A stretch of 64,000 nucleotides of DNA from an uncultured bacterium. Its GTDB lineage: Bacteria; Margulisbacteria; WOR-1; CAVSGV01. Every line of letters begins with the position of its first letter. Position 1 is the first letter of the stretch. Of the stretch, positions 12,614 through 50,468 are shown in pieces. The translations under genes and the position numbers were made by a program. The DNA lies in the NCBI GenBank assembly GCA_963768305.1, contig CAVYHE010000008.1, forward strand, positions 16,565 through 80,564, in the 5' to 3' direction. The notes below the pieces were generated by a model. That model saw only the letters and a program-made list of their open reading frames with translations, did not search any database and had not been told where the DNA came from.

Positions 12614-12640
12614 TGAAATTTTCGGCCAAACTTGACGATA
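12614..12640 (+). promoter_or_regulatory. Putative alternative-sigma (sigma28-like) promoter TGAAATTT-N13-ACGATA
   Basis: Same motif and spacing recur at 31681-31708(-) and 50441-50468(-), each upstream of an orphan gene. Confidence 0.6.
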
Positions 12641-12664
12641 TATATACGAGAGGTGCATCAGCAA

Positions 12665-12967
12665 ATGAGCAAAGCCAAACTGAATAGGTCGAAGAGCCCG
12701 AAAGAAATGTACGTAAAGGTCATTAATGTTGCCTCCAGTAAGACATCTGACGGCAACCTCTCAAGAATAAAAGAAGAATATGACAGAGAAGGCCATTTAA
12801 TGAGAAGCTGGAACGTTTTCTCGGCCGCAGGAATAGCCGCATCCGTCGCCCTCATCGCCAGCCTCGCCGCCTCAGTACTTGGAGTGCCCATTTCCCTTCC
12901 CGAAGTTTTCACCCTTGTCAGCGGTTCTTTGATGTTCGGCTTACTGGCCGGATTTATCCTCAGCTAA
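12665..12967 (+). CDS. Orphan small membrane protein (two C-terminal TM helices)
   Basis: GAGAGGTG SD-like sequence before ATG 12665; basic N-terminus and hydrophobic C-terminus; opposite strand to its neighbours. Confidence 0.6.
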   Translation: MSKAKLNRSKSPKEMYVKVINVASSKTSDGNLSRIKEEYDREGHLMRSWNVFSAAGIAASVALIASLAASVLGVPISLPEVFTLVSGSLMFGLLAGFILS

Positions 12968-13888
12968 CTGTTCAATTATCTGCTTCATGTCCCCGGGAAT
13001 GTCCGACCTGAATTCAAGCGATCTTCCTGTTACAGGATGATGGAACGAAAGCATGACCGCGTGCAACAGCTGCCTGGCCGCATCGATCGAACATTTTTTC
13101 CTTGAATAAACGCTGTCACCGACTACGGGATGGCCGATATGTGACAGATGCACCCTTATCTGATGCGTGCGACCGGTCTTCAGGTCCAGTTCAACAAGAG
13201 TGTACTGCTCTTTGCCGGCTGACAATCTTTTAATGACCTTATAATATGTTAGGGCCTCGCGCTTTTTCACGTTCGCTGCCGTGAGGACGGCCATTTTTTT
13301 CCTGTGGACAGGATGCCTCCCGATCGGCGCGTCAATGACACCGGCTTGATCTTTCATTTTGCCGTGGACGAGCGCAACATAGATCTTCTTCACTTCCCGG
13401 TTCTTTATCTGCGCCGAAAGCCCTTTGTGCGACGCGTCATTCTTCGCGAAGACCATCAATCCCGAGGTGTCCTTATCGAGCCTGTGGACCACGCCCGGGC
13501 GGACGCAGCCGCCTATACCGGAAATATCCCTGCAATGGTGGAGAAGAGCATTGACAAGTGTCCCCCGCTCATTGCCCGCCGCCGGATGGACCACAATACC
13601 GGGCGGCTTGTTTATTACGATGATATCTTTGTCTTCATAAACTATATCAAGCGGTATGTCCTCCGGCTTTGCGGAGATCTCTTCGGCTTGCGGGATGCTG
13701 ACGATTATCCTGTCGTTCTCCTTGATATTATAGCTCGGCTTGGTGAGGCCGTTATTCAATTTGATATGACCGGCTCTTATCAGCTTATCGGTCTGGGAGC
13801 GCGAAAGTCCTGTCTCGCGGGAAAGAAAAACATCTATCCGTTCTCTTGAAGAGCCCGGTCTAACGATTATGTCGAACTTTTTTTCCAT
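12941..13888 (-). CDS. rluD: RluA/RluD-family pseudouridine synthase
   Basis: S4 domain, VHRLDKDTSGL and TGRTHQIRVH. Confidence 0.9.
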   Translation of the reverse strand: MEKKFDIIVRPGSSRERIDVFLSRETGLSRSQTDKLIRAGHIKLNNGLTKPSYNIKENDRIIVSIPQAEEISAKPEDIPLDIVYEDKDIIVINKPPGIVVHPAAGNERGTLVNALLHHCRDISGIGGCVRPGVVHRLDKDTSGLMVFAKNDASHKGLSAQIKNREVKKIYVALVHGKMKDQAGVIDAPIGRHPVHRKKMAVLTAANVKKREALTYYKVIKRLSAGKEQYTLVELDLKTGRTHQIRVHLSHIGHPVVGDSVYSRKKCSIDAARQLLHAVMLSFHHPVTGRSLEFRSDIPGDMKQIIEQLAEDKSGQ

Positions 13889-14562
13889 AACGCATATGAG
13901 GAAACGAGGAACAACAAGAATGCTGCCAGCTGATTGGGAGTGAATATGCCGATATGGACCGGGCTGTATCTGATGAATTCCATAAAGAACCGGTATATCG
14001 AATACAAGAACAACGCATAAAGGAATATCTGGCCGTCATATTTCTTTTTATCATAATAATAGACAAGAATGAATAAAATGACCAGGCCCGCGAGCGAAGA
14101 ATAAAGTTGTGTGGGTTGGTCGATCCCGAAAAGTGTTATGCCGTAGCAGCATCCGTTCAGATAGCAGCCGATACGGCCGATCGCGTAGCCCAAAGCCGCA
14201 GCAGGAGAAACGGCATCCAGCAGCTTCATTATATCGATCTTATGATATTTCGTATAAATATAAATGACGATGAGCGCGGCAAGAAGTCCGCCCGCAAATG
14301 CCATCCCTCCTTGATTCACATAAAGGATAGATATTGGATCTTTAATGAAGCTGGAAGGAAATGCCGCCACATATATCAATCTTGCGCCGACTATGACCGA
14401 TATGACAACATAAATGAAAAGATCATAGAGATGGTCGTCCTTTATTCCCTCGCGTTCCGCATACCGCAAAGCCACGGCAAGCCCGGCAAGGAACCCTACG
14501 GCGGCCATCAAACCCCAGGAATAAATATTGAAAGGGCCTATTCTGCAGATCACCGGATGCAT
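13867..14562 (-). CDS. lgt: Prolipoprotein diacylglyceryl transferase
   Basis: GARL, GRIGCYLNGCCYG, PTQLY and RFFMEFIR. Confidence 0.9.
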   Translation of the reverse strand: MHPVICRIGPFNIYSWGLMAAVGFLAGLAVALRYAEREGIKDDHLYDLFIYVVISVIVGARLIYVAAFPSSFIKDPISILYVNQGGMAFAGGLLAALIVIYIYTKYHKIDIMKLLDAVSPAAALGYAIGRIGCYLNGCCYGITLFGIDQPTQLYSSLAGLVILFILVYYYDKKKYDGQIFLYALFLYSIYRFFMEFIRYSPVHIGIFTPNQLAAFLLFLVSSYALWKKSST

Positions 14563-14993
14563 TATTTTCTCTCCAATATGAACGTCGCGATTATCAATAA
14601 AACCCCCGCGTTTATGGCCGCGTCGGCAAAATTGAAAACGGGAAAGACCCTGAAATCCACATAATCTATCACATAGCCGAAGAATATCCTGTCAAAAAGA
14701 TTACCCAGGCTGCCCCCCAATATCAACGCAAGACAAAAACTGAGGAACAGATTTTGATTGCCTGATCTTGCCTGATAATAGACGACAAGAGCGCAAATGA
14801 GCACGCCGATAAGGATAAGTATGATCCTCTGCCCCGGAAAAAGCCCGAACGCGACCCCGGTATTGCGAACATAGGTCAGGTTAAAAAAACCTTTTATTAA
14901 AGGAATGGATCCTACAGGAGAAATACGCGCCGAAATGATGGATTTTAAGATGCGGTCAAAAAGGAAGACCAGAAGGGCGGATAAATAAAACAA
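14562..14993 (-). CDS. lspA: Lipoprotein signal peptidase II
   Basis: NTGVAFG, GNLFDR, VIDYV and FNFAD. Confidence 0.92.
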   Translation of the reverse strand: MFYLSALLVFLFDRILKSIISARISPVGSIPLIKGFFNLTYVRNTGVAFGLFPGQRIILILIGVLICALVVYYQARSGNQNLFLSFCLALILGGSLGNLFDRIFFGYVIDYVDFRVFPVFNFADAAINAGVLLIIATFILERK

Positions 14994-15332
14994 TCACATT
15001 CCCCCGGAATCAAGTTTTATCCTGGAACCCGCTCTCAGGTGCGTATTGACCGCTTCCACGAGCTGGGCTATCATCTGGCCGACGTACGGAAGAGTAATAA
15101 GATGCGATAATACCTTCGTCAGGATGATCATAACAACCGCAAAAATTATCGTGAGGCCTATGGCAAGGCCGAAACCGCGCATTATGCCCGCAAGAAGGTT
15201 CGTTAAGAGCACCTTCCACGGATTCCCCACGAATTTCAGGTAATCCTGGATCGTTGCTTTCTCAAAATGCGCAGCCAGCTTTTCGATATTCTTGTTCATT
15301 CTCTCCAACATATTTATTTCTTTCTCATCCAT
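14994..15332 (-). CDS. DUF5665-like membrane protein
   Basis: P(W)K...NLLAGIMRGFGLAIGLT pattern. Confidence 0.65.
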   Translation of the reverse strand: MDEKEINMLERMNKNIEKLAAHFEKATIQDYLKFVGNPWKVLLTNLLAGIMRGFGLAIGLTIIFAVVMIILTKVLSHLITLPYVGQMIAQLVEAVNTHLRAGSRIKLDSGGM

Positions 15333-15382
15333 TTGATGTCACTCCTTAACTTTTGCCTTTTTACTTTTGCCTTTTGCGTTTG

Positions 15383-16657
<1,275 letters not shown>

Positions 16658-19456: not shown

Positions 19457-19459
19457 AAG

Positions 19460-21889: not shown

Positions 21890-21891
21890 TT

Positions 21892-23120
21892 TTATGCCGC
21901 CTTGAGCTGCGTTATTTCGGACCTTCTCATAAGTTTCTTTATGATCGATTCAGTGATGGTCACCTTGCCCGACCCCGACTTGGACGGCGCCTCGAACATA
22001 ACGTCCAGCATTATCTCTTCGATGATAGCGCGCAGGGCCCTGGCGCCTATCTTGCGCTTAAGAGCTGCCCTTGCTATAAGCTTAAGAGCGGGATCTGTGA
22101 ATTCCAGTTTCACTCCGTCCATCGCCAGCAGCTTTCCTGTACTGCTTCACCAGGGCGTTCTTCGGCTCTTTTAATATCCTGATCAAAGCTTTTTCATCAA
22201 GCGGGTTAAGGACCGCCACCGCCGGAAGACGGCCGATTATTTCGGGGATAAATCCGTATTTAAGAAGATCATCCGGCAGGACATGCTCAAGCACATCAAC
22301 TCGTATCCTTTCGTTAAGCGTGTCCTCGCCCTTGAACCCTATCCTTCCCTTTCCTATGCGCCGCTCGATAATGTTCTCAAGACCGTGGAAAGCGCCGCCT
22401 GCGATAAAAAGTATGTTCGTGGTGTCAAGCTGGATGAATTCCTGCTGAGGATGTTTTCTCCCGCCCTGCGGAGGGACATTTGCGACAGTACCTTCAAGCA
22501 GCTTAAGAAGCGCCTGTTGGACACCTTCTCCCGAAACATCCCTTGTGATGGAAGGATTCTCGGATTTTCTGGATATCTTATCGATCTCATCCAGATAAAT
22601 AATGCCTCGCGAAGCTTTGACCGGATCATAATCGCTTACCTGAAGTAATCTGGTCAGCACGGATTCCACATCCTCGCCAACATATCCCGCTTCGGTCAAA
22701 GTAGTGGCATCTGCGATGGCGAACGGGACGTTCAATATTTTTGCGAGCGTTTGCGCAAGAAGCGTTTTTCCGGAGCCGCTCGGCCCGATCAAGAGGATGT
22801 TGCTCTTCTGTATCTCCGTATCATCTTCCCTGGAAGATTTGATCGCCTCTTTTATAATGATTGTAGACTGCGACCGAGAGGACTTTTTTCGCCTTATCCT
22901 GTCCGATAACATACTGGTTCAGCATCTCGAACATATCTTTCGGCTTTGGGACCTTTGATATGCCTCCTGTTTCGGGGCGCTCTTGCTTTTTTCCTCCGCG
23001 GCCATTTCCAGGCATATCTTCGCGCACTGGTCGCAAATGTGGGCGTTAGGCCCCGCTATGAGGCGCCTGTCCGGGCCCTTCCGGTTTCCCGCAAAAAGCG
23101 CAGATTATCTGATCGTCCAT
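21892..23120 (-). CDS. clpX: ClpX ATPase (broken by several 1-bp indels)
   Basis: Fragments [50 protein letters not shown] and GARALR occur in order across frames. Confidence 0.92.
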
Positions 23121-23860: not shown

Positions 23861-24886
23861 TTACCCTTCCACTTTAGCTTTTGAAATCACAAAGTCAATC
23901 GCTTTTTCCCTTGATAGATATTCTTTGATCGAATTGAGCATATCTTCGGTCGCTTCCTTTTTGAAGTCTTCTGCCGTTCTTCCGTAATGCTGGGCAAGCA
24001 GTTCCATCTCTTTATCAATATCGTTTTGCTCCACTTCAAGTTTTTCTTTTTCAACGATATATTCAAGGGCCAGTTTTGCCTTCAACCGCACTTCCGCACT
24101 GGGCTTCATTTCATCCCTCAGTTTGCCCATATCCTTTTTTACCGCTGAAAGATAAGAGGCGACCGTCATCCTGTTCCTTTCAAGCGAAGCTTCCAGGTCG
24201 TGCATCATTGAGTCTATTTCGCGCTCGAACATTCCGCCGGGGATATCGCCTTCCACAAGCTCAGACAATTTTTTTGTGACACTATCCCTTTCAGCGATCT
24301 CCGCTTCTCTTTCTTTTCTTCATGCAGGTTCGCCATGATAAGATCTTTCAGCTCCTGCAGTGAGTTTGTTTGGCTCACTTTTTTCGCGAATTCATCATCC
24401 ACGCACAAGCTCGCTTTCAGGAATATTCATTTGTTTTGAGTAGTTTTGTTTTATGTATCCTATGGTCTTATCTATGTCAGCGTCCGTGACTTCCGTGGAA
24501 CGTTTTTCAAGCGCAAGTTTCTTGTAATTGCCAAGCTTGATCTCAGGATAAACGTCCACTTTAACGGTGAAAATAATAGGTGATGTTTTATCAAGCTTTT
24601 TCAGCTCTACTCCCGGATAATCTACCGGTTTGATGCCTGAAGCGTTTACGATGTCAGGATATATATCTGAGAAAAGGAATTGTACCGCCCTGTCAATGAC
24701 GGCTTCCTCATGGATATACTTCTTTAACAGGCCGGCAGGGACTTTCCCCAGCCTGAACCCGGGGACATTAACTTCCCTGGAAGCTTCCGTGTAAGCTTTC
24801 TCTATCTTCGGCTCAAGCTTTGAATATTCCTCTTCAATTTCAAGCGTTACTTGATTCCCCAATTTTTCCTGTTTCAGTATTTTCAA
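23861..24886 (-). CDS. tig: Trigger factor lacking the PPIase domain (frameshifts near 24400 and 24290)
   Basis: PGFRLGKVP ribosome-binding motif, DDEFAK and C-domain REKAIDFVI; lies directly before clpP. Confidence 0.9.
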
Positions 24887-25769: not shown

Positions 25770-26363
25770 TTATATCATTTTTGCCAGTATAACAGCAACT
25801 TTTCTAAGGGCTTTTCCTCGGTGGGAGATATTGTTCTTTAACTTTAACGGCATCTGGGCAAAAGTCATTGAATGACCTTGAGGGACAAAAACAGGATCAT
25901 ATCCGAACCCGTTGCCGCCCTTCATTTTATCGATTACTCTCCCGCGGCAGACGCCTTTTGCCAGCCTGATCTTCCTGCCGTCCGCGACAGCCATTACGCA
26001 CACGAATTTCGCCTTTCTGTTCTTTTTTGACCTCATTTCTTTCAGCAATTTCCCGCAAAGCCTTTGAGTTGAAGGGTTTGGGCCGGCATATCTGGCCGAT
26101 CTGACGCCAGGCCTGCCGTTCAAGGCGTCAACGCAAAGGCCGGAATCATCGGCAAGGACTGGAGCTTTAAGTCTTTTGGATATCGAAATTGCCTTCTTGA
26201 TGGCGTTCTCTTCGAAAGTTCTGCCGGTTTCCTTGATATTGGGAGTTTTTGGCATGTTGAGTAGAGATAATATATGTAATTTGAGAGGTTTGAGAATGTG
26301 TTTGATCTCTCTGACTTTCCCGTTATTCTTTGTGGCAATGAGCAGAATTTTTTTCATGCGCAT
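25770..26363 (-). CDS. rdgB: Non-canonical purine NTP pyrophosphatase (RdgB/HAM1)
   Basis: ATKNNGK, ADDSGL, GFGYDPVF and SHRGKA. Confidence 0.95.
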   Translation of the reverse strand: MRMKKILLIATKNNGKVREIKHILKPLKLHILSLLNMPKTPNIKETGRTFEENAIKKAISISKRLKAPVLADDSGLCVDALNGRPGVRSARYAGPNPSTQRLCGKLLKEMRSKKNRKAKFVCVMAVADGRKIRLAKGVCRGRVIDKMKGGNGFGYDPVFVPQGHSMTFAQMPLKLKNNISHRGKALRKVAVILAKMI

Positions 26364-26381
26364 ACCCTTAACTCATAACTC

Positions 26382-27660
26382 TTAACTCTTCTGTATCGCC
26401 TTTCTCCCGATATCGCTTCTGTAATGCTTGCCGTCAAAAGAGATCATGTGGACGACTTGATATGCGCGATCGATAGCTGATTTAATGGTGTCCGCCATAG
26501 CTGTGACACCGAGAACTCTTCCGCCGGATGTCACGATCTTGCCGTCCTTCATGGCCGTTCCCGCGTGAAAAACGACCGCATCGTCAACGAATTTCGATTC
26601 AAATAACCCCGATATTTCTTTTCCTTTTCCGTAAGCCCCGGGATAACCCTTTGATGCAAGAACAATGCAAACAGCCGCCCTCTCATCCCATTCGATCTTT
26701 ATCTTATCAAGCTTGCCGTCAAGGATATGTTCAATGATATCGATGAGGTCAGTTTTTAACCTCATCATTATCGGCTGGGTCTCCGGATCGCCGAACCGGA
26801 CATTGAATTCAAGGACTTTCGGCCCTTCCTTCGTTATCATTATCCCCGCGTATAAAACTCCGACAAAAGCGGCGCCCTCTTTTCTCATACCGTCGATCAT
26901 TTTTTTAAAAACATTTTCCTTCACATAATTCAATATTTTATCGGTCACGACCGGCGCCGGGCTGTAAGCTCCCATCCCGCCAGTGTTCGGCCCCATGTCA
27001 TTGTCAAAGATCCTTTTGTGGTCCTGCGCCGACTGCATGATAGAAAAATGCTTTCCGTCGGAAAAAGCCAGGATAGAAGCTTCCTCGCCGACCAGGCATT
27101 CTTCAATGATTATTTTTGATGACGCTTCCTTGAATTCATGCTCGCCAAGCATCCTGTGAACGGCTTCTTCCGCTTCTTCCAGTGTCTCTTCGCGACAACA
27201 ACGCCTTTCCCTGCGGCAAGGCCGTCCGCTTTTACCACAACGGAAGAATTAAATGTACGCTAAGATATTCGATGGCGGCCTTTTCATCGGTGAATTCTGT
27301 CATAATCGCCGTCGGAACGCCGTATTTTTTCATGATCTCTTTCGCGTACGCTTTGCTGCCTTCCAGCTTTGCTGCTGCCTTGGACGGGCCGAATATTTTC
27401 AGGCCGTCCTGCTGGAATTCATCCACTATTCCCGCGGCAAGAGGGGCTTCCGGCCCGACGATGGTGAGATCGATCTTGTTATCGAGGACGAATTTTTTCA
27501 GGGCGGGGATATTATCATCTTTAATGTCGATGCACTCCGCCAGGGCGGCGATCCCGGCATTTCCCGGCGCGCAGAATATCTTATCGACTTTTTTGCTTTG
27601 CGACACCTTCCAAACAAGCGCGTGTTCTCTTCCGCCGCCACCGATGACAAGTACTTTCAT
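26382..27660 (-). CDS. purD: Phosphoribosylamine--glycine ligase (frameshifted near 27180-27260)
   Basis: N-half has GGGGREHAL; C-half has QDHKR, GPNTGGMG and EFNVRFGDPE. Confidence 0.93.
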
Positions 27661-30468: not shown

Positions 30469-31632
30469 TTATTTGGGAGCTTCCATCCCGGCTTCTTCAA
30501 ATATTTTGCTTATCTCATTTTTATCCAATCCGACTTTATCCATTCCGGAATCTATCCTCTTAAGGGCTTCTGATTTATAAACCGGATCCCCGCTATCCCT
30601 GATCGTTCTCAAAGCTTCTTTTAACACTTTGATCGTCTCGTTCTTATCCTGACCGGCTTTATTCATCGCGAAAGCTATATTAATGATCGCCTCTGCTTTA
30701 CAATCTATATCCGCAATTGTCCTGGCGGCTGCCAAAGCTGTTTGAAAAACCTTGTTCACTTTGTCTTTATCCGGCTCGGATTCGGACATCTTTAGAGCTA
30801 TCTTCATAAATGCCCATGCTTTCCAATATGGATCTTGAACGAACTTGGCAGTTCCCAGCGCTTCGTTAAAAACTTTGTTTACCTCGTTCTTATCAAGCTT
30901 GGCTTCAGCCATATATGAAGCTATGTAACCAATGAGTGCCGCTTTCGATAGCGCATCCTCAGGGCCTAAAGTCCTGGCTGCGTCCAATGCTTTGTTGAAT
31001 ACTCTGCCCATTTCGTACTTATTCAGTTGGGTGTAAGTGGCCTCTGATGCCGCATCCAAAATAGCCCATGTTTTCCAGTACGGATCTTTAATGGCCACGG
31101 CTATGTCCAAAGCTTCCTTTAACGCACTGCCTATCTCGACATCATCAAGGCCAGCCTTAGCCATATTTGAAGCTATATAGTCAATGGCCTTTGCTTTACA
31201 ATATAAATTTGAGATGGCCCTGGCAGTTTCAAGGGCTTCATTGAATAACTCGATCATCCTGCTCTTACCCAGCTTTGCCTTGATCATATCGGAAGTTATA
31301 TCCTTGATCGCCTCAACTTCTTCATCAGGATCTTTTATGGTCGCGACTTTTTTAAATGCCTCTTGAAAACACCCGTAAAGGACATCCCGGTCCGCTTCCG
31401 TTAATGCGAGTGGATGCTTGTCCATCGGGCTGATGCTCTCCAAGTTTTGGATATAAAATTTTGCTTCAGCTTCCACAATATTCCCATCCTTATTTATATC
31501 GGCGGCTTCTATATAGCTTTCGTCAGAATACGGATCGGAAGTTTTTTTAATGGCCCCTTTATGATTCATAAGCTTATATAGTAGCGCCTGAGCGTTACTT
31601 GAAACATTCGAGACCTGTAAACTATCGGACAT
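30469..31632 (-). CDS. Orphan alpha-solenoid (HEAT/TPR-like, about 39-aa repeats) protein with an N-terminal EF-hand-like loop
   Basis: GGAGG before MSDSLQVSN; DINKDGNIVEAE; about seven repeats of KAxAIxxIAxxMAKAxLDKNExxKVFNEALxxAxxIxDP. Confidence 0.75.
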   Translation of the reverse strand: MSDSLQVSNVSSNAQALLYKLMNHKGAIKKTSDPYSDESYIEAADINKDGNIVEAEAKFYIQNLESISPMDKHPLALTEADRDVLYGCFQEAFKKVATIKDPDEEVEAIKDITSDMIKAKLGKSRMIELFNEALETARAISNLYCKAKAIDYIASNMAKAGLDDVEIGSALKEALDIAVAIKDPYWKTWAILDAASEATYTQLNKYEMGRVFNKALDAARTLGPEDALSKAALIGYIASYMAEAKLDKNEVNKVFNEALGTAKFVQDPYWKAWAFMKIALKMSESEPDKDKVNKVFQTALAAARTIADIDCKAEAIINIAFAMNKAGQDKNETIKVLKEALRTIRDSGDPVYKSEALKRIDSGMDKVGLDKNEISKIFEEAGMEAPK

Positions 31633-31680: not shown

Positions 31681-31708
31681 TTATCGACAAATCCATCCTG
31701 AAATCTCA
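31681..31708 (-). promoter_or_regulatory. Putative sigma28-like promoter TGAGATTT-N13-TCGATAA
   Basis: Second copy of the orphan-gene motif, about 50 nt upstream of the start codon. Confidence 0.6.
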
Positions 31709-38509: not shown

Positions 38510-39738
38510 TTTTTTGCTCCCTGCTTTCTATATATCGCGTCCGCCATTTTTACGGTCCTTGAAATTTCCGCAACATCATGGACCCTTACCATATCGGCGC
38601 CGCTGGCTATTGCCGAAACCACCGTCGCGGCCGTTCCCTCTGCCCTTTTGTCGGGCGGAAGGTCCAGGATCTTGCCGATGGTCGACTTCCTGGAAGTCCC
38701 TATCAATATGGGACATCCCAGGACTTTTAACTCCTTAAGCCGGCGCAGGATCTCAAGATTATGCTCTACCGTCTTTCCAAAACCGAATCCGGGATCAACT
38801 ATCATCCTGCCGGCCGGAACGCCATTGGTTATAGCAAGAGTTATGCTGTTTTGCAAGCAAGAAATTATGTCCGAAATAAGGTCGTCATATACGGGGTTTT
38901 CCTGCATTGTTCGGGGATTTCCGAGCATGTGCATGAGCACGACCGGCACTTTGCGGCGCGCCGCGACTTTCGCTATTTTTCTGTCGGACCTCAGCGCGGA
39001 TACGTCATTTATCAATGATGCGCCGGCTTTTATCGCCGCTTCAGCGACAACTGATTTTATCGTGTCTATGGATATGACCGCGCCCTTGATCCCTGAAAGT
39101 CCTTTGATGACCGGTATAACCCTTTTGATCTCTTCCGCCGCGCTGACAGGTGCGGCTCCCGGTCTTGTAGACTCCCCGCCGACATCGATAATGTCCGCGC
39201 CGTCCTCGATCATCTTCCTGCCGTGAGCAATGGCATCATTAAAATTAACGAACTTTCCGCCGTCGGAAAATGAATCCGGCGTGACGTTCAATATGCCCAT
39301 GATGTATGTGCGCTTGCCGAAGTCGAATCTTTTCCCGCCTATCATCATCGGCTTGGGCTGCCGGTCATTGTTCATAAGAGCCTCATCGATACGGACGGCC
39401 AATCCTTTCAACCCAAAATATTGTTTCTTGAGTTTTGAAATGAGATCTTTGAACTGCTGCAGCGTCCCGAAAACAAGGACATCGGTTGTCCTGATCGAAT
39501 GGTTAATGGTGCCCATCGCCGTTGCCGCGTCCCCTCCGAAAGAAAGCATATCTTGCTTTATTATGTTCGCCTTGGTCACCGGAACATCTTTGATCTTAAC
39601 TGTCCTGAATTCCCCTTTCGGCAGCATTATTGAAATGCCTTTTTCATGGACCTTCATCCTGCGCATTTCCGCTATCAGACCGTTCTTATCAAGATCAATG
39701 ACCGATATTAAATTATTTTTATCCGATCGTTCTGGCAC
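38506..39738 (-). CDS. folP: Dihydropteroate synthase with N-terminal extension
   Basis: MGILNVTPDSFSDGG, GGESTRPG, DPGFGFGK and SRKS. Confidence 0.95.
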   Translation of the reverse strand: MPERSDKNNLISVIDLDKNGLIAEMRRMKVHEKGISIMLPKGEFRTVKIKDVPVTKANIIKQDMLSFGGDAATAMGTINHSIRTTDVLVFGTLQQFKDLISKLKKQYFGLKGLAVRIDEALMNNDRQPKPMMIGGKRFDFGKRTYIMGILNVTPDSFSDGGKFVNFNDAIAHGRKMIEDGADIIDVGGESTRPGAAPVSAAEEIKRVIPVIKGLSGIKGAVISIDTIKSVVAEAAIKAGASLINDVSALRSDRKIAKVAARRKVPVVLMHMLGNPRTMQENPVYDDLISDIISCLQNSITLAITNGVPAGRMIVDPGFGFGKTVEHNLEILRRLKELKVLGCPILIGTSRKSTIGKILDLPPDKRAEGTAATVVSAIASGADMVRVHDVAEISRTVKMADAIYRKQGAKK

Positions 39739-41108
39739 TTAACCTTACCACCTTTTTTGTATCTTTCGTGACCTTTGCATCCTCCGACATCCTGTAGCCA
39801 ACGACCCATACTATCTTTTTGCCGTCGTCGATGACCGGAATGCTGTCCCTTTTATCTATGTCGACCTTTTCATCAACAAAAATATCCTGAAGCTTTTTCC
39901 GCCCTTTCAGGCCGAGGGGCGAGAATGAATCCCCTGCTCTTCTTCTTCTCACGGTCAAAGGCCCGGATATTTTATCATAATCCAGACAAGCGCGGTTCGG
40001 ATTTTTCGCTTTCAGGTCTGATATCCCTCTCGAAGGCAGCAGATCGGCTTCTATCTCAAAGCCCCTTTCCATATCGCTAACAGTGCCCGGTATCGGAAGC
40101 GTGAAGGCAAAATCCCGGGATATCGATCTTGCCGGTTTAGATCTTGATATCAAGAGCTTTCCCTTTTTTATCAGAACATATGCGCCAGGCAGATCTAGCT
40201 CGGCTGTTTTTTTATCCTCATTGCCGATAATGCTCTGGATATGAACGAAAGAAATATCAGCAAGGTCTTTCCTGACATGTTCTATGGCCATTCTTAACAC
40301 TTCGCCTTTCAAGGACGGGTCGATCACCGAGAATTTTTTTGCGTCCAGGCCGATGCTTTCACCGCTCTTGAGAACGATAATGCCGTCCAGAGCTTTCTTT
40401 GCCTGCTCTTCAATAAAACCATGGACCTTGTTGGCCGAAGCGATCATCTGAAGCAGAAGTTCTTTGATGTTTTTGTTGTTCTTTTCAAGGGCAGGTATGA
40501 GGTCTTTCCTGATCTTGTTCCTCAGATATTTTGTCTCGAAATTGCTCCTGTCGATCCTGGGAGTTATTTTTTCAGCTCTCAGATATTTTTCAATGTCAGC
40601 CCTGTACGATCCGATCAGCGGCCGGATGATCTTACTCCCTGACAGGCGGGATTCCTTCCATGCCTTTCATCCCTGTTCCTCTTACCATTCGCATCAGCAA
40701 AGTTTCGATATTATCGTCCGCGTTATGCGCCACGGCTATCTTATCCGCGCCGAATTTGACCGCCGCTCTTTCGAGGAACTCATATCTTATACGCCTTGCC
40801 GCGTCTTCCAGATTAAGCTTTTTTTGTTTCGCGAACGCCGGGACATCGAACTCCTCGACCGCGATGGGGATATTCAATTTTTTTGCGGTTTTCCGCGCGA
40901 ACGCGGCATCAAGCGCGGCATCCTTTCCTCTTATCATATGATTCAAATGCGCAGCGCATAATTTGATGTTCAATCTGCTCTTTAGCGAATTCAATATGTA
41001 AAGAAGCGCCGTGGAATCCACGCCGCCTGAGAAAGCCACAAGGACTTTATCGCCTTTTTCAAGCATGTGATGATCTTGAATGGTTTGCAGGACTTTATCT
41101 TCGATCAT
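39719..41108 (-). CDS. tilS: tRNA(Ile)-lysidine synthetase (frameshifts near 40640 and 40450)
   Basis: AFSGGVDS, AARRIRY, AHNADDNIET, RNKIR and a TilS_C-like C-terminus. Confidence 0.92.
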
Positions 41109-42115: not shown

Positions 42116-42189
42116 TGGCTGGGAGTGGACTCGAACCACCGACCGATCGGGTATGAGCCGATTGCTCTAACCAGCTGAGCTACCCAGCC
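42116..42189 (-). tRNA. tRNA with CAT anticodon, most likely elongator tRNA-Met
   Basis: GGCTGGG acceptor stem with paired 1:72; anticodon arm atcgg-ctCATac-ccgat. Confidence 0.9.
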
Positions 42190-42201
42190 ATTGCATATGA
42201 C

Positions 42202-42800: not shown

Positions 42801-42927
42801 AAGCGTTGGAAATTATACACAAAAGCTGGGCCATTATCAAATTTCCTGAACGCTCGAAATTATTTGAAAACATATTGCATGCATCCATTTCTTTGATACA
42901 ATCCCGTTAAGTTTAAGGAGGATATTT

Positions 42928-43320
42928 ATGGCTGAAAAAGCAAAAGTTCTCGTAGTGGACGACCACAACGGCGTGCTTGAATCGTTCAAGGAAATCTTGA
43001 AGATAAAAGATTACGACGTCGCCGGTTTCCAGTCCGGAAAAGAAGCCATAGAATCCATGAAGACCACGAAATATGATTTCGCTTTTGTCGACCTGAAGAT
43101 GCCGGAAATGGACGGCATAGAGGTCCTGAAAAAGATAAAAGAGATAGATCCCTCGGTGGAGGTCATCATCGTCACCGCTTACGCTTCCGAAGAATCATTC
43201 GCCAACGCGATAACGCTGGGCGCGATGGAATATTTAAGGAAGCCGTTCTTGATGGGAGAGGTTTACGCCCTTGCTGAAAGGGCTCTCAGGAAAAGAAGAG
43301 AAAAAGCTCCGCAGAAATAA
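42928..43320 (+). CDS. Single-domain response regulator receiver
   Basis: VLVVDD, FVDLKMP, VTAY and KPF; AAGGAGG SD. Confidence 0.9.
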   Translation: MAEKAKVLVVDDHNGVLESFKEILKIKDYDVAGFQSGKEAIESMKTTKYDFAFVDLKMPEMDGIEVLKKIKEIDPSVEVIIVTAYASEESFANAITLGAMEYLRKPFLMGEVYALAERALRKRREKAPQK

Positions 43321-44597
43321 TTAATCGATCCCCGCTCTTATTACGCTGTGAATATGCTTGACCACCGGAAGCTTTGCTATTATCTTTAAGCGCGTCTTGA
43401 ACGTCTTTTTCCCTGTTCTCGTGAAGAATAATGACTATCTGCGCGTATCTGCCTTTTGATTCCCTCTGCACCACTTCCTGAATGCTTATTTTTTTCTTTG
43501 AGAAAACCCCCGATATGCGCGCGAGCACGCCGGGATTGTCCGGCGCTTCCAAGCGGATATAATACCTGCTGCGGATATCGCCGATATCCTTAATCTTTAT
43601 TTTCTTTCGCCGGAGGATAATACGGCTCCGCAGCGCAGCATCCGCCCAAGCTTCCCGCTATCTCAATGACATCAGAAAGTACCGCGGAAGCCGTGGGCAG
43701 CCCGCCCGCGCCTTCGCCGTAGAACATCGATTTTCCTACCGCATCGCCTTTAACGAATACCGCGTTGTAATTATCCGAAACTTCCGCGAGCGGATGGCCC
43801 TTTTCCATCAGCGTGGGATGCACTCTAACTTCGATCTTGTCATTTTCAATCTTGATTATCGCCAGAAGCTTTATGACATATCCTATCTCTTTCGCATAAT
43901 CGATATCTTCGGCGGAAATGCCGGATATCCCTTCTTTGTAAATGTCCGCGACATCCACAAAAGAACCGCTGGAGACATAAGCAAGTATCGCCGCTTTATA
44001 CGCCGCGTCGCTTCCGTCGATGTCCATTTTCGGGTCCGCTTCCGCAAAGCCCATTTTCTGCGCCTGTTTCAGCGCGGTTTCAAAGCTGATGCCGTCTTTT
44101 GTCATTTTTGAGAGGATATAATTCGTGGTCCCGTTGACGATGCCGGATATCTCGTTGATCTCGTTCGCCGCGAAACTTTCCCTTATGGCACGAAGTATCG
44201 GTATGCCGCCGCAGACGGAAGCTTCGAAGAGGACCTGAACGCCCGTTTTTTTCGCGGCATCGATTATTTCTTTCCCGTGCTTGGCAATGAGTTCTTTATT
44301 GGAAGTGACAACGTGCTTGCCCGATCTGATGGCGGCAAGAACGAATTGCTTCGCGGGGTTCACTCCGCCGATGGTTTCGATGACGATCGATATCTCGGGA
44401 TCGTTGATGACATCATAGGCGTTTTTTGTGAAAGCCGGTCCCGCAATGCTTCTTTTATCGCGGATATCGGATGCTTTTGCAATTTCAAGCTTTATGCCGG
44501 TCCTGCGGGCGATGAGGGCGGAGTTCTTCTTAAGCACCTTCACGACCGAGGAGCCGACAATTCCCAATCCGATAATGCCTATCTTAACTTTATTCAT
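43321..44597 (-). CDS. hom: Homoserine dehydrogenase with C-terminal ACT domain (3' frameshifts)
   Basis: GLGIVG, FEASVCGGIP, NGTTNYIL, GFAEADP and ACT motif DNPGVLARI. Confidence 0.93.
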
Positions 44598-44633
44598 TGA
44601 TCCTCACTCTTAACTTACAACTAATAACTGATA

Positions 44634-45580
44634 CTAATCAAAAAGAGAGCTTATCGAAAGGTTTTCGTAACTTCTCTTTATCGCTTCACCGAACAGAGGC
44701 GCCACGGAGACGACTTTAGCCCGTTGATATTTTTCCCGGCCATCGGAAGCGTGTCGGTGACAGTGACCTCGGTGAATTTCGCCTTGTTCATTTTCTCCAC
44801 GGCGCCTCCGGAAAATATCCCGTGCGTTGCGACAAAATATATTTCATTGTTGCAGCCCTGTTTCTTCAGAGCTTCCACGCCGCCGGTCGCGGTTCCGGCG
44901 GTATCCACCATGTCATCCACGATGATCGGGCTCTTGCCTTTAACATCGCCCACGACATGCATTATTTCCGCTTTCTGATGTTCCGGCCTTGTCTTATGCA
45001 ATATTGCCAGCGGCGCATTAAGCCTGTCGCTGAGCTTTTTCGCGGTCTTCGCCCTGCCGGTATCAGGAGCCACGACGACCGGGTTCTTGATATTTTTCTC
45101 CTTTAGATAATTCGCCAGTATCGGCATCGCGGTAAGATGATCGACCGGAAGATTAAAATATCCCTGTATCTGGTCGGAGTGCAGGTCCATTGTTATTATC
45201 CTGTCTATTCCGGCCGTCGTCAGAAGGTCCGCTATCAGGCGCGCTGATATCGGCTCGCGGGAAGCGGATTTCTTGTCCTGCCTGGCATATCCGAAATGCG
45301 GAATGACCGCTGTAATGTTCTTCGCTGATGCCCTCTTAAGCGCGTCGATAATAATGAAAAGCTCCATCAGGTCCTCGTTGACCTTTGAGGTGCAGGTCTG
45401 GATGACATAAGCGCTCATCCCCCTCACGTTATCAAGGATCCTGGCGTATATTTCCCCGCCGGAAAATCTGGAGATATTGATGTTCGATAATCCGACGCCG
45501 AGGTATTTCGCGATGTTCTTTGAAAGTTCCGGGTGGGATGTGCCGGCGAATATCTTCATTTCATCATTTTTTGGCGTCAT
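44634..45580 (-). CDS. prs: Ribose-phosphate pyrophosphokinase (frameshift near the 3' end)
   Basis: YARQDKK, DLHSDQIQG and VDDMVDTAGT; the corrected end reads SISSLFD*. Confidence 0.95.
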
Positions 45581-45620
45581 TGGGCCCTCCTTGAAAGAAC
45601 TTGGGACATCAATGATTATA

Positions 45621-46924
45621 TCAGCTAACCAATTCTCCCTCAAGAACAAATGGACCTGTGTCCGTTATGCGGACATCGACCAACTTGCCGATCGATCCTT
45701 TATTCCCCGCGAATTTGACAAGCTTGTTTCCTCTTGTGCGCCCGGAAAGTTTACCAAGTTTATCGCGTTCAACCAATACTTCCAGCGCCAGCCCTTTCAA
45801 TTCCTGGTTTTTTTTCTCCGCCGTTCTCTCCACGATATCCATCAGGCGGTGAAGGCGGTCCGACTTGACTGCATCCGGCGCCTGTCCTTGCATTTTTTCT
45901 GCCGGCGTGCCGGGGCGCGGAGAATACGCGAAAGTATTTACAACATCAAGCTGTAATTCACTGATCAGATCAAGAGTGCGTTGAAATTGTTCCTCGGTTT
46001 CGCCGGGGAATCCGGCAATAGCGTCAGAGGTTATCGAAGCTTCGGGGATCCTGTCCCTGATCCTCCCGACCAGTCTGCGGTAATGATCGGCGGTATATCC
46101 TCTGTTCATCGCTTTCAATATTCCGTCGTCGCCTGATTGGAGCGGCAGATGGAAATATTCGCAGACCTTAGGCAAGCTTTTTACAGCATCGATGATCTCA
46201 TCTGACATATCCCTGCGGATGCGAGGTGAGGAATCGGAATCCTTTCGATCCCGTCAATCTGATGGACCTTTTCCAATAACTCCCCTAACCCATAACTCTT
46301 AACTTTTAACTCTTTCGTTTTATAATTATTCACATTCTGCCCCAGCAATATCACTTCTTTAAATATCGACTTATCAAGCCCCTTTACTTCATCAATTATT
46401 TCCTTCATCGGCCGGCTCATTTCCCTGCCCCTCACATACGGAACGACGCAATACGAGCAGAAGTTGTCGCAGCCGGTCATTATGGTGATATAGGCCTGGA
46501 CCGATGGTTTTCTTTTTGATGTTCCGTGAAGCGGATGGTCGCAGGTCCCGACAGAAACGATCCTGTTCCTTTTCTCGATAATTTCATTGATAAGCTGGAC
46601 GATGCGGCCTTCCTGCGCCGGTCCGGCAATGATGTCAAAAAATGGAAGTTTTTTAAGGAGTTTTTCTTTGTCTTTTTCAGCGATGCAGCCTATGATGCCG
46701 AGTACTTTTTTAGGATCTCGCATTTTAAGCGAAATGGTTCCGAGCGCGTATCCGATAGCCTTATCTTCCGCCTGCTGCCTTACGCAGCAGGTATTTATCA
46801 GGACAATGTTCGCTGATTCAAGGTCGGCCGCCGGCTCATGCCCCGCGGCTTCCAGAAGCCCGGCGACGGCTTCCGAATCATTTACGTTCATCTGGCAGCC
46901 GTAGGTCTTAATGAAGTATTTCAT
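45621..46924 (-). CDS. miaB: tRNA methylthiotransferase MiaB (frameshift near 46220)
   Basis: TYGCQMN, CDNFCSYC, HLPLQSG, YSPRPGT and a TRAM domain. Confidence 0.92.
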
Positions 46925-46983
46925 CGATGTTGATTATACTATGTTTGACTATTCAGTGCCGCAAAGCTATAATTTTAAGAACA

Positions 46984-47548
46984 ATGAAAAAGCTCATTAT
47001 TATATGTATGGTCATCGGCATTGCTGCCGGCCTGGCGGCGGGCAAGTCGATCGGTCCCCGGTACAAACTCGAAACAATAAAGGTGGGGTGGAAAATGAAC
47101 GGTCAAAATATGACGATAAAAAGCCCGGCTTTCGTGAACATGGGAAATTTCCCGGTAAGTTCGACCGCGAGGCAAGGGATAAATCCCGAACTCTTATTCG
47201 AAAATATTCCCGCTAATGCGAAAAGTCTTGTCCTGATAATGGATGATCCCGACGCTCCTTACGGGACATTCGATCACTGGATATTATTCAATATTTCCCC
47301 GAAAATAAAAGATATAAAAGAAGGCAGCATCCCCGCCGGCGCATTGAAAGGGAAGAATACTGCCGGAACATTAGCAGTATTTAAGCCCCTCTCCGCCTCC
47401 CGGAAAAGCGCACCGCTATGTTTTCAATCTTTACGCGCTGGATTCCCTGCTTTCGTTAAAAGACGGAGCTGACAAAGCGCAGATCGAAAAAGCAATGGCA
47501 GGACATATCATCTCGCAGGCAAGCCTGATCGGGCTGTATAAAAAATAG
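46984..47548 (+). CDS. YbhB/YbcL (PEBP/RKIP-like) protein (frameshifted)
   Basis: MDDPDAP, FDHW and PPPGKAHRYVFNLYALD occur across frames. Confidence 0.88.
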
Positions 47549-47549
47549 A

Positions 47550-48044
47550 ATGGCGCAGGATTTTTCGTTCGATATTGTTTCAAAGATCAATCTCCAGGAA
47601 CTGGACAATTCCATAAACATGTCCATGAAGGAGATCTCGCAAAGGTTCGATTTCAAGGGAAGCGTAAGCAGCATAAAGAACGAAGAGAATAAAAAGCTGA
47701 TCGTCGTGTCCGACGATGAATTCAAGCTGAAGAACGTCATAGATATCCTCCAGAACAAGCTAGTGAAGCGCGGGATATCGCTTAAATTCCTGGAATACGG
47801 AAAGATCGAGTCCTCTCTCGGCGGCAGCGTGAAGCAGGAAATAACCCTTAAGCAGGGCATACCGCAGGAAAAAGCAAAACAGATAAACAACATGATAAGG
47901 GACCAGAAGCTGAAAGTTCAGACGCAGATACAGGGCGACCAGATAAGGGCCTCAAGCAAGAGCAAGGACGACCTTCAAGCCGTTATTCAGCTATTAAGGG
48001 CCGCAAACCTGGATATTGAGCTGCAATTCATTAATTATAGATAA
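47550..48044 (+). CDS. yajQ: YajQ family nucleotide-binding protein
   Basis: SFDIVS, RFDFKG, QIQGDQIR and QFINYR. Confidence 0.93.
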   Translation: MAQDFSFDIVSKINLQELDNSINMSMKEISQRFDFKGSVSSIKNEENKKLIVVSDDEFKLKNVIDILQNKLVKRGISLKFLEYGKIESSLGGSVKQEITLKQGIPQEKAKQINNMIRDQKLKVQTQIQGDQIRASSKSKDDLQAVIQLLRAANLDIELQFINYR

Positions 48045-48062
48045 AGCCCCCTAACTTCCTTA

Positions 48063-48091
48063 TTGCCAAAAATACGGTTTTCGTGTATAAT
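48063..48091 (+). promoter_or_regulatory. Sigma70-type promoter of rplU-rpmA-obgE (TTGCCA-N17-TATAAT)
   Basis: Near-consensus hexamers; the ATG is only 9 nt downstream of the -10 box. Confidence 0.65.
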
Positions 48092-48100
48092 TGCCGACCT

Positions 48101-48421
48101 ATGTACGCAATAATAGAAACAGGCGGAAAACAATACAAGGTGGAGAAAGGCCTGGAAATGGACGTGGAGCTTCTTGCCGATAAAAAAGCGGGCGACGCGG
48201 TAAAGTTCGATAAGGTCCTTATGCTCGGCAATAAAGGAAAGATAGAAGTAGGCGAGCCATACATAAAGGACGCCCATGTGGACGCCAAAGTCGTATCCAT
48301 CGGCAAGGACAAGAAAGTCACCTCTTTCAAATTCAAGAGGAAAACGAATTATCACAGGACCATAGGCCACAGGCAGATATACACCAGAGTCAAGATCGAA
48401 TCCATTAAAGGAGAAGCGTAA
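48101..48421 (+). CDS. rplU: 50S ribosomal protein bL21
   Basis: [14 protein letters not shown] and GHRQ. Confidence 0.97.
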
Positions 48422-48657
48422 TGGCGCATAAAAAAGGCGGCGGATCCACAAGGAACGGCCGCGATTCGAATTCGCAGAGGCTTGGAGTGAAGTCCTTCGG
48501 CGGACAGACCGTAACGGCCGGCAGCATCATAATCAGGCAGCGCGGGCTGAAATTCTCTCCAGGCAGGAACGTCGGGCTCGGCCGCGACGACACCCTTTTT
48601 GCCAAGGCTGACGGAAAGATACTGTTCCACGGCTCAAAAGTAAGCGTCATCCCCTAA
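48421..48657 (+). CDS. rpmA: 50S ribosomal protein bL27
   Basis: [16 protein letters not shown]. Confidence 0.97.
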
Positions 48658-48684
48658 CCGGCAACTTCGGAACGATCAGATCAT

Positions 48685-49674
48685 ATGCCCTTCATAGACG
48701 AAGCCCTTATCACTATTAAAGCCGGAGACGGCGGGGACGGCTGCGTATCTTTTCGCAGAGAAAAATTCATCCCGAAAGGCGGACCTGACGGCGGAAACGG
48801 CGGGCGCGGCGGCGACATTATAATAACTTCTGATTCGCATCTTAGAACTCTCCTTGATTTCAGATATAAAAAGAATTACGAAGCTGGAAAAGGCGCGCCC
48901 GGAGAAGGCTACAGAAAAACCGGAAAAGACGGGCAGCCTTTAACGATAAAAGTCCCTTGCGGAACACAGATATTTGACGCGAACACCGGCGAACTTATTG
49001 TTGACCTGTTAAACGACGGGCAAAAGATATTGATCGCCCGCGGCGGCGACGGCGGATTCGGCAACGACCATTACAAATCTTCCACGAACCAGGCGCCGAG
49101 AAAAGCGCTATCCGGCTGGCCCGGCGAAGAAAAAATCTTAAAACTTGAGCTGAAACTGCTCGCCGATGTCGGGCTTGTCGGATGCCCGAACGCGGGAAAA
49201 TCATCATTGATATCGATAATATCGGCGGCTCATCCGAAGATAGCGCCCTACCCTTTCACGACGAAAGAACCTAATCTCGGGATAGTGAAAGTTGACGAGT
49301 TCGAAAGCTTTGTCGCGGCGGATATTCCGGGATTTCTTGAAGGCGCGCACAAAGGAGTGGGCCTGGGCGATAAATTCCTGAAGCATATCGAGCGGACCCG
49401 AGTACTCATACATATAATAGACGCCGCGGGGGTGGACGGACGGCGTCCCATCGACGATTACGCCACTATTAACAAGGAGCTTGCCGAATACAGCCGGCAT
49501 CTGATCGATCTGCCCCGGATCGTGGCTTTGAATAAGATTGACCTTCTGGAAGCTAAAAAGAACCTGAAAGAGTTCGACAAGCAAAAGATCGAATATATCC
49601 CGATATCCTGCGCGACAAAAGAAGGCGTTCAGCTTCTGGTTTACAAGGCGGCGGAGATGCTGAGGGCGAAATAG
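48685..49674 (+). CDS. obgE: GTPase ObgE
   Basis: Gly-rich Obg fold, GCPNAGKS, YPFTT, DIPG and NKID. Confidence 0.97.
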   Translation: MPFIDEALITIKAGDGGDGCVSFRREKFIPKGGPDGGNGGRGGDIIITSDSHLRTLLDFRYKKNYEAGKGAPGEGYRKTGKDGQPLTIKVPCGTQIFDANTGELIVDLLNDGQKILIARGGDGGFGNDHYKSSTNQAPRKALSGWPGEEKILKLELKLLADVGLVGCPNAGKSSLISIISAAHPKIAPYPFTTKEPNLGIVKVDEFESFVAADIPGFLEGAHKGVGLGDKFLKHIERTRVLIHIIDAAGVDGRRPIDDYATINKELAEYSRHLIDLPRIVALNKIDLLEAKKNLKEFDKQKIEYIPISCATKEGVQLLVYKAAEMLRAK

Positions 49675-49678
49675 GGCT

Positions 49679-50434
49679 TCACTTTATCAGTTCCCGTACC
49701 ATTTCTTCCATCCTCTTTGCGGCCATATTAACATCAATAAAACCGGGACTCGTGAACATCATGATGATCTTGCTTGTTTCGGCCATTCTTATTATTTTTT
49801 CTTTCATAATGTCCCATTCGCTCTTTGCCTTTCCAAAAGAATTATAGCCAAAAATATCCAGGTCCAAACTGATCACCCTTGAGTTCGCCCTGCCGGTTCT
49901 GTCAGCCCAGCGTGTCAATGGGGATATCCCGGAAAATCTCATTCCCCGCCAATCAACGGCTTTCTCCCCTTTTTTGAGATCATCGTGGAGGAACCTGAAT
50001 GTCATGTTCGGATATAAACGCGCTACGGCGGTCATGAAATTCGCGACTGTGATCCCGTGCCGGAAAACCTTTGGCCATAATTCCCATTCAAGATACTTGC
50101 GAACAGTTTTAGTGCTTGAAGCGGGCGATAAATTTATCCGGCCGCCGAAAAAATTATTGTCCGGATGCACATTCCGGTCGATATGAAGCCATTCTTCGTT
50201 CCCTTTTAAATTGCCAAGATCTCTCTCCAGTAAAGAGAAGAACACGCTGGCATGATGATCCGTCCCAAGATAGATCGACTTGGAAGGCGTTGATATCTTA
50301 ACAAAGATCTTGTTCGATATAACATAGGATCGCCCCAATATATTCAGGTTGCATTCTTCGCGTGAGACGCATTTCCTGTTCCTCTGCAAAGGGAAATTAT
50401 ATCTCGCGCTTTTGACATCTATTTTTATGCTCAC
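49679..50434 (-). CDS. Orphan with degenerate UPF0489/arginase-deacetylase-like motifs
   Basis: DHH, LHID..HPD, ANFM, LDLDIF and TSPGFID motif series; opposite strand to its neighbours. Confidence 0.6.
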   Translation of the reverse strand: MSIKIDVKSARYNFPLQRNRKCVSREECNLNILGRSYVISNKIFVKISTPSKSIYLGTDHHASVFFSLLERDLGNLKGNEEWLHIDRNVHPDNNFFGGRINLSPASSTKTVRKYLEWELWPKVFRHGITVANFMTAVARLYPNMTFRFLHDDLKKGEKAVDWRGMRFSGISPLTRWADRTGRANSRVISLDLDIFGYNSFGKAKSEWDIMKEKIIRMAETSKIIMMFTSPGFIDVNMAAKRMEEMVRELIK

Positions 50435-50440
50435 GTATGT

Positions 50441-50468
50441 TTATCGTGAAAAAAACCGGTAAATTTCA
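50441..50468 (-). promoter_or_regulatory. Putative sigma28-like promoter TGAAATTT-N13-ACGATAA
   Basis: Third copy of the motif; the GTG start is 6 nt downstream. Confidence 0.6.

Follow-up and report, generated by a model that had tools for sequence, protein, structure and literature searches.

A bipartite motif, TGAAATTT-N13-WCGATA (class A), which recurs in the genome of an uncultured bacterium of the Margulisiibacteriota (WOR-1), is probably (we put it at about 80%) the promoter of an alternative sigma factor of the sigma-28 (FliA/WhiG) family and not of RpoD. The motif was analyzed in a 64-kb stretch of DNA (the window, G000:C8:16565-80564, G000 being this genome), in the whole assembly (1.53 Mb in 16 contigs, 86% complete) and in relatives. 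We observed directly how often the motif occurs, where it lies and which way it points, its conservation, the genes behind it and the sigma factors encoded; from these we infer the promoter identity, the sigma that reads it and a two-tier cascade. Class A would act as a -35/-10 pair driving about 80 mostly single-gene units, with about 100 genes. The set would consist mainly of lineage-specific proteins of unknown function, together with rpoD, a second RpoD-like sigma, a sigma-54 activator, further regulators and some envelope or sugar enzymes.

Class A sites in the window

A reading of the sequence alone (the sequence-only reading) had described three copies of TGARATTT-N13-WCGATA, each before an orphan gene. 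All three are present where it placed them, in sense orientation upstream of open reading frames (ORFs), while a match occurred in none of 100 dinucleotide-preserving shuffles. The spacers are, as it had said, unrelated in sequence and identical in length. The copies and the genes behind them, in window coordinates, are:

12614..12640, + strand: predicted class A promoter, copy 1 (site 37); TGAAATTT at 12614-12621, 13-nt spacer, ACGATA at 12635-12640; exact match, matrix score 51.5 bits
12665..12967, + strand: orphan behind copy 1, 100 amino acids (aa); no Pfam family
31682..31708, - strand: predicted class A promoter, copy 2 (site 38); TGAGATTT-N13-TCGATA; 36.1 bits
30469..31632, - strand: orphan behind copy 2, 387 aa; no Pfam family at E<=1e-5
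50442..50468, - strand: predicted class A promoter, copy 3 (site 39); TGAAATTT-N13-ACGATA; 31.6 bits
49679..50434, - strand: orphan behind copy 3, 230-251 aa; no Pfam family even at E<=10

Copy 1 is flanked by an A-tract immediately 5' and by TATATA immediately 3', and lies 24 nt before its ATG (12665). Copy 2 lies 49 nt before the ATG at 31632. For copy 3 the distance is 7 nt to GTG 50434 or 69 nt to ATG 50372; the ATG, which has a GAGGAA ribosome-binding site before it, is the more likely start. This copy stands back-to-back with the canonical sigma-70-type promoter of proB, which is on the + strand.

The three downstream genes keep their orphan status, as none has a Pfam family at E<=1e-5. 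The first, described as a small membrane protein, has two predicted membrane segments and a polar N-terminal half; it has a paralogue elsewhere in the genome, likewise behind a class A site (site 3). The second had been described as an alpha-solenoid repeat protein, and its 387 aa are indeed made of helical-looking repeats of about 45 residues. It has matches in 9 of the 50 other genomes of the class, at no more than 41% identity and partly repeat-wise, and by these matches the family is patchy and fast-evolving. Upstream of its homologues, a class A-like site of at least 12 bits was found at 3 of the 10 loci scanned. The label UPF0489-like, given to the third protein (251 aa), finds no support, as there is no Pfam match even at E<=10.

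The N-terminus of the 387-aa protein (window 31490-31560, - strand) carries a loop, DxNxDGxI...E, like those of EF hands or dockerins (Dockerin_1 matches weakly, E=0.038). The same loop begins the proteins behind class A sites 26 and 27 (G000:C5 and G000:C6), which hints at a common calcium-binding or docking module in several class A proteins.

Genome-wide statistics and placement

The exact pattern occurs 56 times in the genome with a spacer of 13, against 0, 0, 1 and 1 times with spacers of 11, 12, 14 and 15. The relaxed form TGARAT-N16-CGATA has 74 copies, against 3-8 at six other spacings. A 43-column weight matrix gave 82 sites of at least 14 bits, 76 of them at 30 bits or more, and 0-1 sites on a genome simulated from a third-order Markov model. 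The scores are bimodal, with almost nothing between 8 and 14 bits. The scan that the sequence-only reading had proposed thus returns a sharply separated set, and its expectation of many dispersed genes agrees with some 80 sites scattered over the genome. The extended consensus is AAAAAG-TGAAATTTYC...AAWWTTGWCGATAWATATATAG, with an A-tract upstream and an AT-rich stretch after the -10. The likeness of CGATA(A) to the sigma-28 -10 element, already pointed out from the three copies, is borne out: CGATA is nearly invariant, with 1.6-2.0 bits per position, and its C and G reach 1.9-2.0 bits.

ORFs were called with a crude caller of our own, which gave 1788 of them over 88% of the genome, and 78 of the 82 sites lie outside called genes. 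Among the 81 sites with a same-strand ORF downstream, the start is found within 125 nt in 60, within 250 nt in 67 and within 450 nt in 76, with a median distance of 54 nt. Judged by sequence, the sites are placed and oriented as promoters would be, and such a bias had been named as a check on the motif. Transcription units behind class A are monocistronic in 45 of 67 cases and together hold about 103 genes. At the 13 loci with a long distance between site and next ORF, Rfam gave no match at the gathering score.

The motif could instead be the operator of a regulator or part of a dispersed repeat or cassette. Its high information content and fixed spacing would suit such an element, and its association with singly inserted orphans could suggest mobile cassettes. 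We consider this very unlikely. The motif is strictly oriented toward the gene, stands at the promoter distance given above, and its two blocks and their spacing fit the -35/-10 geometry of a sigma factor; its asymmetry, together with spacers and flanks that are not conserved between copies, disfavours a palindromic operator or a repeat element. It is also kept upstream of rpoD in most relatives, as described below.

Conservation across the phylum

The exact word TGAAATTT-N13-WCGATA was found in all 41 relatives searched. Among genomes of the Margulisiibacteriota/WOR-1 that are at least 85% complete (97 genomes, 51 of the class and 46 of other classes), all 51 genomes of the class carry it, with 3-119 copies each, as do 36 of 46 from other classes, which makes 87 of 97 for the phylum. 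The motif read backwards gave 0-1 copies per genome. Of the lineage-specific sigma system that had been proposed, the alternative-sigma part is supported, while the distribution is phylum-wide and not narrowly lineage-specific.

A matrix scan of rpoD loci found a sense class A site directly upstream of the gene in 16 of 20 relatives, and rpoD of this genome likewise has one (site 49, G000:C8:219987-220013). Both here and in the relative G012 (L139:1029-1075) the site lies at the dnaG-rpoD junction and overlaps the end of dnaG; in one relative the junction that carries it is 33 nt long. In E. coli, a sigma-32 heat-shock promoter that serves rpoD lies inside dnaG. The two arrangements are alike in that an alternative-sigma promoter would stand where dnaG and rpoD meet and supply housekeeping sigma whenever the alternative sigma is active; they differ in that the promoter here would be sigma-28-like and not of the sigma-32 type. 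The Pfam scan of the 75 downstream proteins described next showed no heat-shock genes in the class A regulon.

Genes downstream of class A

We compared 75 downstream proteins with Pfam, leaving out one site that runs off a contig end and five sites more than 450 nt from an ORF; sites 62 and 63 share a gene. No Pfam family at E<=1e-5 was found for 58 of the 75, against 14 of 73 control genes, which were the other called genes of the window (Fisher p=5.7e-13). When sites farther than 125 nt and proteins shorter than 100 aa are dropped, this becomes 40/53 against 11/65 (p=1.8e-10). The enrichment of orphans that the sequence-only reading had predicted is therefore seen, and several class A orphans are paralogues of one another. 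The idea of an orphan regulon stands in that most targets are orphans, but needs widening, since rpoD and several regulators belong to it as well.

The 17 proteins with a family include RpoD, a second RpoD/RpoS-like sigma, a sigma-54 activator, Rrf2, an HTH_3 protein and a response regulator. Further members are an SLH-domain protein, an 1878-aa HEAT-repeat protein, a TPR protein, phosphoglucomutase, a UDPGP-like protein, GH26 and an FGE-sulfatase protein. No flagellar family was found among the 75. Signal-peptide-like starts are present in 3 of the class A proteins listed. In their first 30 residues, class A proteins are richer in S, N, K and R and poorer in L, D and E than the products of the other called genes (p=1e-3 to 7e-5). 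Such a composition could hint at type III export, but is at most suggestive, since the starts of the control genes were set by a crude caller.

Housekeeping promoters

In a dyad count, TTGACA-N17-TATAAT emerged from 856 upstream regions in which class A had been masked. At 10 or more matches out of 12 it occurs in 107 of the 856 regions in sense, against 35 in antisense and 9 in shuffled sequence. Two cases lie in the window:

48063-48068 and 48086-48091: TTGCCA and TATAAT, canonical promoter of rplU
50487-50492 and 50510-50515, + strand: TTGCCT and TATAAT, canonical promoter of proB

These cases and the genome-wide enrichment agree with the earlier remark that housekeeping genes use TTGnnn/TATAAT. 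Regions 2.4 and 4.2 of RpoD, in this genome and in one relative, look canonical by comparison with E. coli. Class A does not read as TTGACA-N17-TATAAT, as its -10 is CGATA and the canonical promoters form a separate set.

Shifted by one base, class A can be written gTGAAA-N18-GATAAT, with 4/6 matches to TTGACA and 5/6 to TATAAT, and could then be a lineage-specific strong form of the RpoD promoter. It has an UP-like A-tract, and rpoD and its paralogue themselves carry it. Yet the near-invariance of the C and G of CGATA is unexplained by recognition of TATAAT, the DNA-reading regions of RpoD are canonical, and canonical promoters are enriched and present before rplU and proB. In addition, the bimodal scores, the mere 82 or so sites and targets that are mostly orphans and not housekeeping genes make this form of RpoD promoter highly improbable.

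Sigma factors of the genome

The genome encodes four sigma-70-family factors, plus rpoN: RpoD, an RpoS/RpoD-like paralogue, a 247-aa FliA/WhiG-like sigma and a 193-aa short sigma. The 247-aa sigma has TIGR02479 FliA_WhiG as its best family (1.7e-42), and WhiG and FliA as closest solved relatives. Its type occurs in 49 of the 51 genomes of the class at 55-78% identity, and at no more than 39% elsewhere. Only regions 2 and 4 are present in the short sigma, which passes the generic TIGR02937 model; FliA and then WhiG are its closest solved relatives, and the sources annotate it only as 'sigma-70 family'. Each of the 51 genomes of the class has one copy of it (57-89% identity), and across the phylum it occurs in 96 of 97 genomes. 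Neither of the two small ORFs that precede it has a recognisable family, and no anti-sigma was recognised adjoining it. For FlgM (PF04316) only a chance-level match was obtained in the genome (E=0.19). Two FliA/WhiG-family sigmas and a flagellar type III exporter are thus encoded, as the sequence-only reading would lead one to expect.

The RpoS-like sigma (G000:C8:264762-265739, - strand) carries its own class A site. As a class-wide reader of the motif it was rejected, as the other 50 genomes show only RpoD at 31-36% identity. No extracytoplasmic function (ECF) sigma, RpoH or class-wide RpoS is present, and therefore the two sigma-28-like factors appear to be the only plausible readers.

A sister promoter class and the flagellar clusters

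The dyad count also yielded a second word, (A)TGCAAGTTT-N14-CGATA (class B), with the geometry of class A (xxAAxTT-N15-CGAT). At this spacing the only enriched words are TGAAATT (71 copies; controls 3 and 1) and GCAAGTT (15; controls 0 and 2), all others having 7 or fewer. Class A and class B are two discrete -35 specificities. They were scanned with class-specific matrices; an iterated matrix seeded with class B drifted and merged the two. Class B has about 19-22 sites in the genome and is found in 51 of 51 genomes of the class and in 31 of 46 of other classes. It precedes TPR, transglutaminase-like and orphan genes, and heads two flagellar clusters, inside which both sigma-28-like genes sit:

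G000:C4:90201-100568: flagellar cluster 1; fliK-like, flgE-like, fliM, fliN, fliO ... fliQ, fliR, flhB, flhA, orf101, orf76, short sigma
G000:C4:100497-100522, - strand: class B at the head of cluster 1, before the first flagellar gene and just after a tRNA gene
G000:C9:90832-103411: flagellar cluster 2; fliK-like, flhB-C-like, flgF/G, flgA, flgH, flgI, rod-binding-like orf95, 247-aa sigma, flgB, flgC, fliE, fliF, fliG, fliH, fliI, fliJ
G000:C9:103484-103509, - strand: class B at the head of cluster 2, before the first flagellar gene

Among 15 relatives, 5 have a class B site in sense orientation 6-7 kb before the 247-aa sigma. Directly upstream of class B at cluster 1, a tRNA-like gene (L169:4530-4660, - strand, equal to G000:C4 ~100530-100660) with its own TTGACA/TATAAA-type promoter was read from the sequence.

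The clusters encode the export gate, C-ring, rod, hook, P and L rings and FliI/H/J. Flagellin_N, Flagellin_C, FliD_C, MotA_ExbB and MCPsignal were not detected in this 86% complete genome. Of the 51 genomes of the class, 50 have FHIPEP (FlhA), 1 has Flagellin_N and 7 have MotA_ExbB, where absence means undetected by these profiles in incomplete genomes. The flagellar apparatus may thus be one without filament and stator.

Which sigma reads class A

We lean, with about even confidence, to the short sigma next to flhA as the reader of class A and to the 247-aa sigma as the reader of class B. The short sigma is preferred for class A because it occupies the classical fliA position after flhA and because class A resembles the promoters of two-domain sigmas; the 247-aa sigma is preferred for class B because class B, with its -35 word GCAAGTTT, retains the canonical AAG of TAAAG. 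With this assignment each sigma would also have its own word upstream. An internal class A site does precede orf101-orf76-short sigma in this genome.

The opposite assignment, in which the 247-aa sigma of the rod/ring operon reads class A as the late tier and the short sigma reads class B, is possible but clearly less probable. In sequence the 247-aa factor comes closer to a canonical sigma-28, and it is canonical factors of this kind that drive the late tier. Two bases ahead of CGATA, class A carries a semi-conserved TG; in other sigmas a TG at such a position is read by region 3, which the short sigma lacks. The short sigma also ends an operon headed by class B, which would fit autoregulation through that word. 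However, it is class B that keeps the AAG, and class A (TGAAAT-N16-CG) looks more like the promoters of two-domain sigmas, such as the B. subtilis SigW word, TGAAAC-N16-CGTA. A class A site within about 1.4 kb upstream of the 247-aa sigma was found in none of 20 relatives, its operon is without class A in 14 of 15, and two genomes rich in class A (G036 and G013) showed no orthologue of it.

Presence or absence of the sigmas set against motif counts in the 97 genomes was tried as a test of the assignment and does not discriminate, because both candidates are nearly universal.

Under the assignment of class A to the short sigma, or its reverse, the cascade would have two tiers. In the first, class B would turn on the basal body, the export apparatus and both sigma-28-like sigmas; in the second, one of the two sigmas would turn on the class A 'late' set together with rpoD. 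The late set here would consist of orphan proteins instead of flagellin and motor genes.

Likeness to known promoters and points of doubt

The E. coli sigma-28 consensus is TAAAGTTT-N11-GCCGATAA. In class A the CGATA is nearly invariant, as in GCCGATAA, and the -35 word matches TAAAGTTT at 6 of 8 positions. Promoters of sigma-28 factors (FliA/SigD/WhiG) share with those described here the two blocks, the CGATA(A) core of the -10, an A/T-rich -35 (xxAAxTTT), stringency and high information; shared as well are the cognate-type sigma genes inside flagellar operons and the hierarchical layout. For P. aeruginosa fliC, an excerpt of one study gives the sigma-28 elements as GCCGATAA and TCTAAAG (PMC12784957).

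Several points weigh against a sigma-28-type promoter and its assignment to the short sigma. The spacer of class A is one base longer than in the E. coli and P. aeruginosa consensus. The -35 is TGAAATTT in class A or TGCAAGTTT in class B, and not TAAAG: class A has lost AAG, and TAAAGTT does not exceed background at this spacing. In place of GC, the extended -10 mostly has TGW or CMC (TGW in class A), GCCGATA being found in only about 9 of 82 sites. Where sigma-28 regulons hold late flagellar genes, none stands behind class A, and its roughly 80 promoters, mostly before orphans, have no flagellin, cap, stator or chemotaxis genes behind them. Both candidate sigmas score below the NCBIfam FliA_WhiG cut-off of 189.6 bits (145.7 for the 247-aa sigma and 75.1 for the short one). 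A class A site before the short sigma was seen in only 5 of 20 relatives, 2 of them strong, and tracks an extra small ORF or a long flhA-sigma gap. Both sigmas have Arg at the equivalent of Q228 of P. aeruginosa FliA, a base-reading residue according to the excerpted study (PMC12784957), and therefore the recognition helix does not discriminate between them. The two class A-rich genomes in which no 247-aa orthologue was found, G036 and G013, are 95% and 89% complete. The weight matrix was scored on the sites from which it was built, the independent controls being the spacing counts and the simulated genome; the gene calls are an overcall with uncertain starts; and the control for Pfam coverage was a single contiguous 64-kb window and not a random sample. 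It is from sequence that we infer promoter function for class A.

ECF (group 4) promoters are another point of comparison. Class A can be read as TGAAAT-N16-CGAT, and the short sigma is a two-domain factor (regions 2 and 4), as in that group. In contrast, the hallmark AAC (-35) and CGT (-10) of ECF promoters are absent, AAT or AAG and CGA standing in their place, and the nearest solved relatives of the short sigma are FliA and WhiG.

FliA-family sigmas serve expanded programmes elsewhere. In Bdellovibrio, a FliA regulon belongs to the attack phase. To our knowledge, no developmental cycle has been described for the lineage studied here. Excerpts of two papers place FliA-family sigmas in non-motility or large programmes, with sigma-28 late genes in Chlamydia (PMC12282069) and WhiG in Streptomyces (PMC12871210). 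The present system differs from all three in having two FliA-like sigmas, two related promoter words and a basal body without recognisable filament or stator. In the literature on sigma factors, flagella and type III secretion of Margulisbacteria/Saganbacteria, searched outside supplements, no description of the motif or regulon was found. The excerpted ProFinder paper notes only incomplete promoter lists for Margulisbacteria (10.64898/2026.09.23.753901), and Margulisbacteria are among the clades listed for FlgV homologues in an excerpt of PMC11607428.

Other features of the window

At the start of the window (1-1786, + strand) is the 3' end of a giant ORF, which extends upstream of the window and measures 2656 aa in the whole genome; the next six ORFs (1787-6076) have no Pfam family.

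Many conserved genes are split into two adjacent ORFs, among them clpX, tig, purD, tilS, miaB and a histidine kinase, and elsewhere flhA and the C-terminus of rpoD. In the window the adjacent ORF pairs are at:

21892-22912
23861-24886
26382-27660
39719-41108
45621-46924
58807-61231

So many split conserved genes point to an indel-rich assembly, pseudogenes being less likely, and therefore start and stop calls in this genome need care.

Tandem arrays of 3-9 heptamers RAGTTAW (e.g. GAGTTAAGAGTTATGAGTTAAG) stand in sense directly before start codons, where a ribosome-binding site would be expected. They are the strongest signal of the dyad count (GTTA-N10-GTTA, 32 against 1.1 expected), with about 25 loci genome-wide, and might be an element of the 5' untranslated region or the site of an RNA- or DNA-binding protein. 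The window holds the following:

~26358-26400, - strand: RAGTTAW array
~44598-44640, - strand: RAGTTAW array
~46290-46330, - strand: RAGTTAW array

Significance

The two related sigma-28-type words, with about 100 sites per genome, would give a concrete promoter code for an uncultured phylum that is sister to Cyanobacteria, and they supply promoters and sigma candidates for in vitro work. The conserved regulon, made up largely of proteins of unknown function, would be linked through its regulation to a flagellar apparatus in which neither flagellin nor stator is recognisable.

As a speculation, which we regard as unlikely, a basal body without filament and stator may be a protein export machine, and the class A regulon, with about 80 promoters under a sigma-28-derived factor, perhaps a FliA without region 3, may be its fast-evolving secreted cargo. 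The polar, Leu- and acid-poor N-termini without signal peptides are consistent with such cargo. If true, this would be an injectisome-like effector system of independent origin, in which the checkpoint for late flagellar genes is reused to time the expression of effectors. The link between the regulon and the flagellar apparatus makes it possible to test for a secretion or differentiation programme derived from the flagellum and lying outside the injectisome lineages known so far.

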